This document shows, piece by piece, positions 18,395 to 19,560 of a stretch of DNA of 49,897 bases. Made by a program: the position numbers and the translations under genes. The notes beneath the pieces were generated by a model, which worked only from the letters and a program-made list of their open reading frames with translations, was not told the origin of the DNA and did not search any database. Origin of the DNA: a virus; the UHGV virus genome UHGV-0143838; one strand, written 5' to 3'. Within the stretch, counting starts at the first letter, position 1. The number at the start of each line of letters is the position of its first letter.

Positions 18395-18799
18395 ATGAGT
18401 GAAGCTCTTAAGGCACTGAACAATATTCGTACACTTCGCGCACAGGCTCGTGAAACAGATCTGGCAACTCTGGAAGAGATGCTGGAAAAACTCTCTGCTG
18501 TTGTTGAAGATCGCCGTGAGGAAGAAAATTCAGCCCGTAAAGAACAAGAAGAACGTCAGGCTAAACTGGAAGCCTTCCGCCAGAAATTGTTAGAAGACGG
18601 TATCGATCCTACAGAACTACTCGCTTCAGTTGGTTCATCCCAGCCTAAAACCAAATCAACCCGCGCTCCTCGCCCCGCTAAATACAAATATAAAGATGAA
18701 AACGGTAATGAGCAGACTTGGACGGGTCAGGGCCGTACTCCTAAAGCAATCGCTGCTGCTATAGAAGCTGGTAAGACACTGGAAGATTTTGCAATCTAA
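18395..18799 (+). CDS. hns: H-NS family nucleoid-associated protein (island-encoded full-length H-NS paralogue, Hfp/StpA-like)
   Basis: 134 aa; N-terminus [20 protein letters not shown]...LEEMLEKL and C-terminal DNA-binding motif TWTGQGRTP match H-NS closely (from memory of the E. coli H-NS sequence). Confidence 0.88.
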
Positions 18800-18862
18800 C
18801 CGCTACAGCATATCCGGGCTTCACTGTTCTCAAGATAACAGGCCCGGAAAATATTCGATTAT

Positions 18863-19243
18863 TCATCCAAGACTATCCCAGTCTGGCAGGTTGTTAACGA
18901 CCTTTCGCCACCAATGATACGCAGCCATAAGAACACCAAAACAAATACCTGCTACGACGCTTGAGACAAATGCAGTGCCCGGTTGTATCCCCGTATCCTT
19001 CCAAGTAAAAAACCACATACAGATCCCCCATGCCGGACCAAACCATCCACCCATCAACAAAGTGATTTGCCAGAATGAGGCAAAAGGTAGCGGTGGTATC
19101 TTGAGTCCAGCTTTCCATGCGAGGTGTAGCAAAGGAGGGGCATAATTACTTCGCCACATCTTCTTGCTTTCCATGATGGCAATAGCGTGTTTCTTTTTAG
19201 CTTCAAAGCCCATACGGTTCCCTCCAGCTCCACCTTTACTCAT
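18863..19243 (-). CDS. hypothetical membrane protein
   Basis: ORF 126 aa with 2-3 hydrophobic Trp-rich segments. Confidence 0.45.
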   Translation of the reverse strand: MSKGGAGGNRMGFEAKKKHAIAIMESKKMWRSNYAPPLLHLAWKAGLKIPPLPFASFWQITLLMGGWFGPAWGICMWFFTWKDTGIQPGTAFVSSVVAGICFGVLMAAYHWWRKVVNNLPDWDSLG

Positions 19244-19317
19244 CTATCGATAAAAAGCCACAATAGACAATAATGATTATCAATTCCATGTATGTAAGTC
19301 AAAAATAACTCAAATAG

Positions 19318-19560
19318 TCATTCCTTTAGATCTTCTGGTGAAACCCGGTCACATGCCATTTTCTCAAGCATTCTTTGTAATCTTTTCATTTTCAACTTAC
19401 GCGCTTTTTTCTCACCAATCTCCTGATAGTATTCTTCACGACGTTCGTTGACCACGCTCCTGAAATTTTTCAAAAGCTGTTCAAGTGTTTTGATGTCAGT
19501 AGTTGCGGCTTCCGCTTGGATTTTTTTATACATATACATCACATGAAATTCATCAATCAT
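19318..19560 (-). CDS. hnsT: truncated H-NS-like protein (H-NST-like; oligomerisation domain only)
   Basis: 80 aa; LEQLLKNFRSVVNERREE matches the H-NS N-terminal dimerisation region ([19 protein letters not shown]); no C-terminal DNA-binding domain. Confidence 0.7.
   Translation of the reverse strand: MIDEFHVMYMYKKIQAEAATTDIKTLEQLLKNFRSVVNERREEYYQEIGEKKARKLKMKRLQRMLEKMACDRVSPEDLKE

Follow-up and report, generated by a model that had tools for sequence, protein, structure and literature searches.

According to later papers that cite the work (PMC3897749, PMC7074111, PMC6035254), hnsB and hnsT were described in 2005 by Williamson and Free in the serU island and in island IE3. The full-length protein, Hfp, was characterised in 2010 (PMC2814080), and Hfp and H-NST were reviewed in 2020 (PMC7074111, PMC7544231). 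Of 33 ROD21-like islands with a full-length homologue, 14 also encode a truncated one that runs the other way; in phylogeny, the short and the full-length forms make up separate, distantly related clades (PMC6035254). The pairing of the two genes, their opposite orientation and their island location are therefore already known from publications of 2005, 2010, 2018 and 2020. Published work reports that Hfp and H-NS associate in heteromers, that H-NS represses hfp and that Hfp can complement hns phenotypes (PMC2814080, PMC7544231); heteromers and the repression of H-NS targets are known for the 536 protein, and the effects of Hfp are larger at low temperature (PMC2814080). In Salmonella Enteritidis, Hfp is about 30-fold scarcer than H-NS, an hfp deletion changes little, and an hns mutation raises hfp expression 16-fold (PMC7544231). 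The targets published for Hfp and H-NST, namely bgl, proU, fimbriae, capsule and LEE, lie outside the island (PMC2814080, PMC3897749, PMC7074111).

As reported in two papers citing Williamson and Free 2005 (PMC3897749, PMC7074111), the H-NST of enteropathogenic E. coli (EPEC) antagonises H-NS at proU and bgl through defective mixed oligomers, and it is for the EPEC protein only that these papers give dominant-negative relief of H-NS by hetero-oligomers. Roles have been assigned to H-NST residues Ala16, Leu30, Arg60 and Arg63 (PMC3897749, PMC7074111). Ala16, already known to be conserved among 65 H-NST homologues, was reported to be essential for anti-H-NS activity, and Val16 was reported as the reason why the H-NST of uropathogenic E. 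coli (UPEC) is non-functional (PMC3897749). Other proteins resemble H-NST as functional analogies only, by description rather than by sequence: T7 gp5.5 is described as likewise relieving repression by way of the oligomerisation domain of H-NS (PMC3897749); Ler mirrors H-NST in being homologous to the C-terminal domain of H-NS only (PMC7074111); and Hha/YdgT differ from H-NST in that Hha is a co-repressor, not an antagonist.

The window (the whole stretch of DNA that was analysed, 49,897 nucleotides) is E. coli chromosome. Its 1.6-kb hnsB–hnsT region was 100% identical to FDAARGOS_1259 and FDAARGOS_1260 and was matched in part by 713 of 5426 complete E. coli genomes, 277 of which covered at least 80% of it. 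K-12 hns and stpA, the serU island of UPEC 536 and island IE3 of EPEC E2348/69 served as reference loci. At the DNA level, window positions 17691–21966 were 97.8% identical to the right-hand end of the serU island in 536, with the common gene order RepL, DUF4756, hnsB, DUF6404, hnsT, two hypothetical genes, alpA and DUF6387. The island ends with the 3′-terminal 62 nt of the tRNA-Ser gene serU (21905–21966, minus strand), an attachment-site copy identical to positions 45000–45061 of the 536 locus (L005); homology to 536 stops at 21966, inside serU, and ARAGORN found no complete tRNA within the window. An SfV/SfIV-like myovirus prophage fills positions 21967–49897; over its tail genes the identity is about 98%. 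In the 100%-identical genome, outside the window, the prophage ends at a frameshifted integrase adjoining an intact serU, beyond which lie mtfA, asnT and the yersiniabactin island; at the other side the island integrase adjoins zinT, placing the island between zinT and serU. With the intact serU and the frameshifted phage integrase situated outside the window in that genome, two mobile elements, a serU island of about 34 kb and then the prophage, occupy one tRNA site in tandem. The GC content of the island was 0.29–0.44, except for one 1-kb block of 0.49 in the DotA/TraY gene, and that of the adjacent prophage was mostly 0.50–0.59. The two genes are the H-NSB (Hfp) silencer and the H-NST anti-silencer known from earlier work on the serU island of E. 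coli.

The hnsB (hfp) gene at 18395–18799 on the plus strand encodes a full-length nucleoid protein of the H-NS family with 134 amino acids, the length shared by Hfp, also named H-NSB or H-NS2, of 536 (ECP_1927), CFT073, EAEC 042 and ROD21-like islands. A Pfam search showed two domains, PF22470 Histone_HNS_N at residues 1–78 (E = 6e-25) and PF00816 Histone_HNS at residues 98–134 (E = 1.4e-17), and TWTGQGRTP, which contains the minor-groove-binding Q/RGR motif, lay at residues 108–116, unchanged in all four aligned proteins (window H-NSB, Hfp, H-NS and StpA). The product was 97% identical to Hfp of UPEC 536, from which it differs, in the direction window to 536, by S34T, A35T, V36I and K100T; it also resembles that protein in its two domains, its motif and its island position. 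An identity above 90% to Hfp of E. coli 536 has been used as the criterion for membership of Hfp (PMC7544231), and the window protein, at 97%, belongs to Hfp on this basis. Identity was 64% to K-12 H-NS and 53% to StpA, with which the full architecture is shared; unlike these chromosomal proteins, the window protein is horizontally acquired and island-borne. The exact window allele was found on 201 contigs, and is thus rarer than the 536 allele, which was found on at least 1000. RefSeq lists the product as WP_044706495.1 under the label ‘H-NS family histone-like protein’.

The hnsT gene at 19318–19560 on the minus strand encodes H-NST, a protein of 80 amino acids with the N-terminal domain of H-NS only. 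Its sole Pfam match was PF22470 Histone_HNS_N at residues 1–79 (E = 2e-11; 44 bits against a cut-off of 24.5 bits), and a sequence search matched it to residues 9–78 of PDB 3NR7, the solved H-NS 1–83 fragment (E = 7e-6). The N-terminal domain is common to chromosomal H-NS and H-NST, whereas the DNA-binding domain of H-NS is absent from H-NST. The window protein was 96% identical to H-NST of UPEC 536, with the substitutions A16V, N32K and R54H from window to 536, and 91% identical to H-NST of EPEC E2348/69 (WP_000564595.1, the accession given in PMC7074111), with the seven substitutions I23L, N32K, E50D, L61A, M64L, K79I and E80D from window to EPEC. H-NS and the H-NSB encoded next to it were far less similar, at only 30% and 29% identity. 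H-NST of UPEC strains CFT073 and 536 agrees with the window protein in its 80 residues, island, neighbours and orientation, but has Val16 where the window protein has Ala16; the EPEC protein, also of 80 residues, shares Ala16, Leu30, Arg60 and Arg63 with it. A strong Shine–Dalgarno sequence, AAGGAG, lay 8 nt upstream of the ATG and was kept in 536 and E2348/69, so that start codon, Shine–Dalgarno sequence and stop codon were conserved in three islands. The window and 536 alleles were each found exactly on at least 1000 contigs.

These results bear out the preliminary description, which had named a 134-residue H-NS homologue retaining TWTGQGRTP and, on the opposite strand about 500 bp away, an 80-residue protein with the N-terminal region only, and had proposed an island-encoded H-NS paralogue together with a truncated protein of the H-NST type. 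Both genes have the predicted domain content, synteny with the serU island and the identity to Hfp of 536 place the paralogue in an island, and the short protein is H-NST by its identity to the UPEC and EPEC proteins. Judged by the E-values and by identities of 91–97% to characterised proteins, the two matches are far beyond chance. The locus matters as annotation alone, in that generic RefSeq labels can be replaced by hnsB/hfp and hnsT of the serU island: the hnsT product is listed as WP_001519860.1 with the same generic label as the hnsB product, and hnsT of strain 536 carries the label ‘hypothetical protein’. In a protein collection clustered at 90% identity, the three H-NST alleles were grouped under an unrelated 98-residue neighbouring ORF (19634–19930, minus strand) as representative; this looks like a clustering artefact that could mislead automated annotation, and the cluster size was therefore not taken as a measure of abundance.

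The preliminary description had named an alignment lacking the conserved dimerisation residues as the finding that would speak against H-NST, and the alignment showed the opposite. H-NST aligned without gaps to H-NS residues 1–43, and of the 19 positions that are hydrophobic within H-NS residues 1–46, it kept a hydrophobic residue at 15, among them all of the large core positions (L5, I7, L8, I11, L14, L23, L26, M29, L30, L33, V36 and V37). Ala16, Leu30, Arg60 and Arg63 were all present, Lys or Arg occupied 9 of the 17 positions in residues 51–67, and the last residue of H-NST stood opposite H-NS residue 77. In the 3NR7 structure, helices 1–3 of H-NS make up site 1, and helix 4 together with the last part of helix 3 makes up site 2. 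On that basis, since the protein ends at H-NS position 77, H-NST retains site 1 and the central helix, while the linker, the DNA-binding domain and the greater part of helix 4 are missing. An AlphaFold model from the single sequence (mean pLDDT 82.5) consisted of a short N-terminal helix and one helix of about 50 residues, with the last 8 residues disordered. A Foldseek search of this model against the PDB gave no significant match (best E-value 4), because a two-helix hairpin is too simple to discriminate in a fold search; the usable structural link is the sequence match to 3NR7.

Codon 16 of hnsT was GCG (Ala) in the window, GTG (Val) in 536 and GCA (Ala) in EPEC. Among the 5426 complete E. 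coli genomes, the 59-nt haplotype around this codon had exact matches in 159 genomes in its window form and in 168 in its 536 form, Nissle 1917 being among the latter; the Ala16 and Val16 haplotypes of the serU type therefore occur at about equal frequency. Because Ala16 is needed for activity in the EPEC protein, the window H-NST is predicted from its sequence to be active against H-NS, in contrast to the Val16 allele of 536 and CFT073. The common statement that UPEC-type H-NST is inactive rests on Val16, and Ala16 is present in roughly one in two serU-type haplotypes of complete E. coli genomes, that of the window included. Strains with Ala16 may possess an active H-NS antagonist, which could shift the expression of H-NS-silenced virulence and mobile-element genes. 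The point is a modest refinement of known biology and adds no new system.

The genes hnsB and hnsT converge, their stop codons being 518 bp apart, and this gap is occupied by a gene that the preliminary description had not mentioned, encoding a DUF6404 membrane protein (18863–19243, minus strand; PF19942, E = 5e-42; RefSeq start at 19213). Its position was matched in the 536 serU island, and the gene was absent from EPEC IE3. The hnsB and DUF6404 genes, which also converge, are separated by 63 bp, where fold prediction gave a hairpin with an interrupted stem of 12 pairs (18813–18848) that folds on both strands (z = −2.3 on the plus strand and −1.4 on the minus strand) and is a candidate two-way terminator; it was not called by the consensus terminator scan. 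A second, GC-rich hairpin with a 10-bp stem (19595–19619, minus strand; centroid fold, z = −2.35) lay just upstream of the hnsT ribosome-binding site, between the 98-residue ORF and hnsT. It was near-invariant in 536 and E2348/69 and could be a terminator or attenuator parting hnsT from the genes on the alpA side. Consensus scans were no richer in sites than shuffled sequence would be, with 3 promoter-like sites against 6.3 expected from shuffled sequence and 3 terminator-like sites against 2.2 expected.

The surrounding genes belong to the backbone of the island, which is a relative of the ROD21-like EARL islands. Upstream of hnsB, the RepL-like and DUF4756 genes (17058–18237, plus strand; Pfam RepL and DUF4756) stand in an order identical to that of 536. 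On the hnsT side, all on the minus strand, two conserved hypothetical genes had no Pfam match: the 98-residue gene at 19634–19930, positioned as in 536 and EPEC IE3, and a 96-residue gene at 19983–20273 (WP_000687678.1, identical in 536). They are followed by an AlpA-family helix-turn-helix gene at 20355–20573 (Phage_AlpA, E = 2e-18; WP_001298701.1, identical in 536), a putative excision factor (recombination directionality factor, RDF), in line with the role described for the AlpA-family gene of such islands (PMC6035254), and by a DUF6387 gene at 20790–21626 (PF19924, E = 2e-52). Matched by position, the DUF6387 gene probably corresponds to the ‘843 bp gene of unknown function’ beside the RDF in ROD21-like islands (PMC6035254). 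The position of hnsT beside the alpA/DUF6387 module was common to the window, 536 and E2348/69. EPEC IE3 thus resembles the window in having DUF6387, alpA and two hypothetical genes upstream of hnsT, but differs in having neither a full-length hnsB nor DUF6404 beside hnsT and in lying at an Asn-tRNA gene with a different integrase (PMC7074111), whereas the window island lies at serU. In E2348/69 (locus L006), a different hypothetical gene, encoding 80 residues, at 9973–10215, followed by a PIN-domain gene, replaces DUF6404 and hnsB, and IE3 has hnsT alone.

Taken together, the locus is read as the regulatory end of a serU island with the known hnsB/hnsT pair, an account to which we give a probability of about 0.85. 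Points against it are the seven substitutions that separate the window H-NST from the tested EPEC protein and the scarcity of Hfp in Salmonella Enteritidis. We infer heteromer formation, silencing and anti-silencing by the window pair from published work on the orthologues. By orthology, H-NSB would bind AT-rich DNA through its C-terminal domain with the Q/RGR motif and would form heteromers with chromosomal H-NS through its N-terminal domain; being itself repressed by H-NS, as its orthologue is, it may act as a silencer with partial redundancy, whose importance is greatest at low temperature or under H-NS limitation. H-NST, comprising the H-NS dimerisation site and the central helix, would join H-NS in mixed oligomers that are impaired in extension or bridging, and these defective oligomers would relieve silencing in a dominant-negative manner.

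It is conceivable that hnsT is functionally weak or silent here, like the CFT073 and 536 allele, and that the island backbone carries it without regulatory consequence. The overall identity, which is nearer to 536 (96%) than to EPEC (91%), is consistent with this, as are the conserved strong hairpin before the hnsT ribosome-binding site, which could limit read-through from the alpA side, and the report that deletion of hnsT in EPEC gave no detectable LEE phenotype, effects being seen on induced expression only (PMC3897749), which makes the native expression and physiological relevance of H-NST uncertain. However, the residue blamed for the inactivity of the UPEC protein, Val16, is Ala in the window, and the conserved ORF, length and Shine–Dalgarno sequence, at 91–96% protein identity across islands, together with the presence of the exact protein on at least 1000 contigs, suggest that the gene is under selection; we therefore consider a weak or silent hnsT unlikely. 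A defect of another kind, namely that the 80-residue ORF is a chance ORF or a decayed duplicate of hnsB and no true gene, might be suggested by a full-length homologue within about 0.5 kb and by the retention of the N-terminal part only. Its probability is negligible: H-NST is just 29% identical to the adjacent H-NSB, hnsT exists in EPEC IE3 without any hnsB, the start codon, Shine–Dalgarno sequence and stop codon are conserved in three islands, and the short and full-length forms fall in the distant clades noted above (PMC6035254). The low identity, the occurrence in IE3 and the conserved signals effectively refute it.

How an intact H-NST would act is a separate matter. EPEC H-NST was shown by EMSA to bind LEE1 and LEE3 DNA and to aid Ler, dependent on R60 and R63 (PMC3897749), and since H-NST can bind DNA in vitro via these arginines, a pure oligomer-poisoning model may be incomplete. 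H-NST might then be mainly a DNA-binding accessory factor that helps counter-silencers displace H-NS, with oligomer poisoning secondary, and the basic C-terminal half of the window protein with its conserved Arg60 and Arg63 would suit such a role. Set against this, Pfam found no DNA-binding domain of the H-NS type in H-NST, the strongest loss of function came from A16V and A16L in the coiled-coil interface (PMC3897749), and the synthetic H-NS fragments 1–58 and 56–83 alone inhibit DNA bridging in vitro (PMC5647153). A mainly DNA-binding H-NST is accordingly a possible but doubtful reading; DNA binding and oligomer poisoning are in any case compatible with each other and not exclusive.

The preliminary description also suggested that the pair could tune silencing of this island or of the neighbouring prophage. 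That suggestion found no direct support: the targets published for Hfp and H-NST are outside the island, and none of the results connects the pair with the prophage. A more far-reaching proposal, which we regard as quite improbable, is that the pair forms a self-contained silencer/anti-silencer switch for the island, coupled to the excision module. The gene hnsT is the fifth in a same-strand run with DUF6387, alpA, two small ORFs and DUF6404. If it were co-expressed with the excision factor, the Ala16 H-NST would lift the silencing of transfer genes by H-NS and H-NSB at excision, and the convergent hnsB would restore silence after integration. Were such a switch real, the prophage sharing the serU site could also be affected in this strain.

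The cargo of the island (window positions 1–17000) is unlike that of the 536 serU island. It includes a DotA/TraY-family gene (8818–11532, minus strand), a restriction endonuclease gene (12420–13289, plus strand) and a GNAT acetyltransferase gene, and the TcpC/TIR genes of 536 are absent from it; only the hnsB–hnsT–alpA end is conserved. Comparison with FDAARGOS_1259 also showed a 268-bp length difference at window positions of about 4331–4352, where the flanking BLAST alignments overlap by 22 bp, which could reflect variation in repeat copy number or a deletion in the island cargo.
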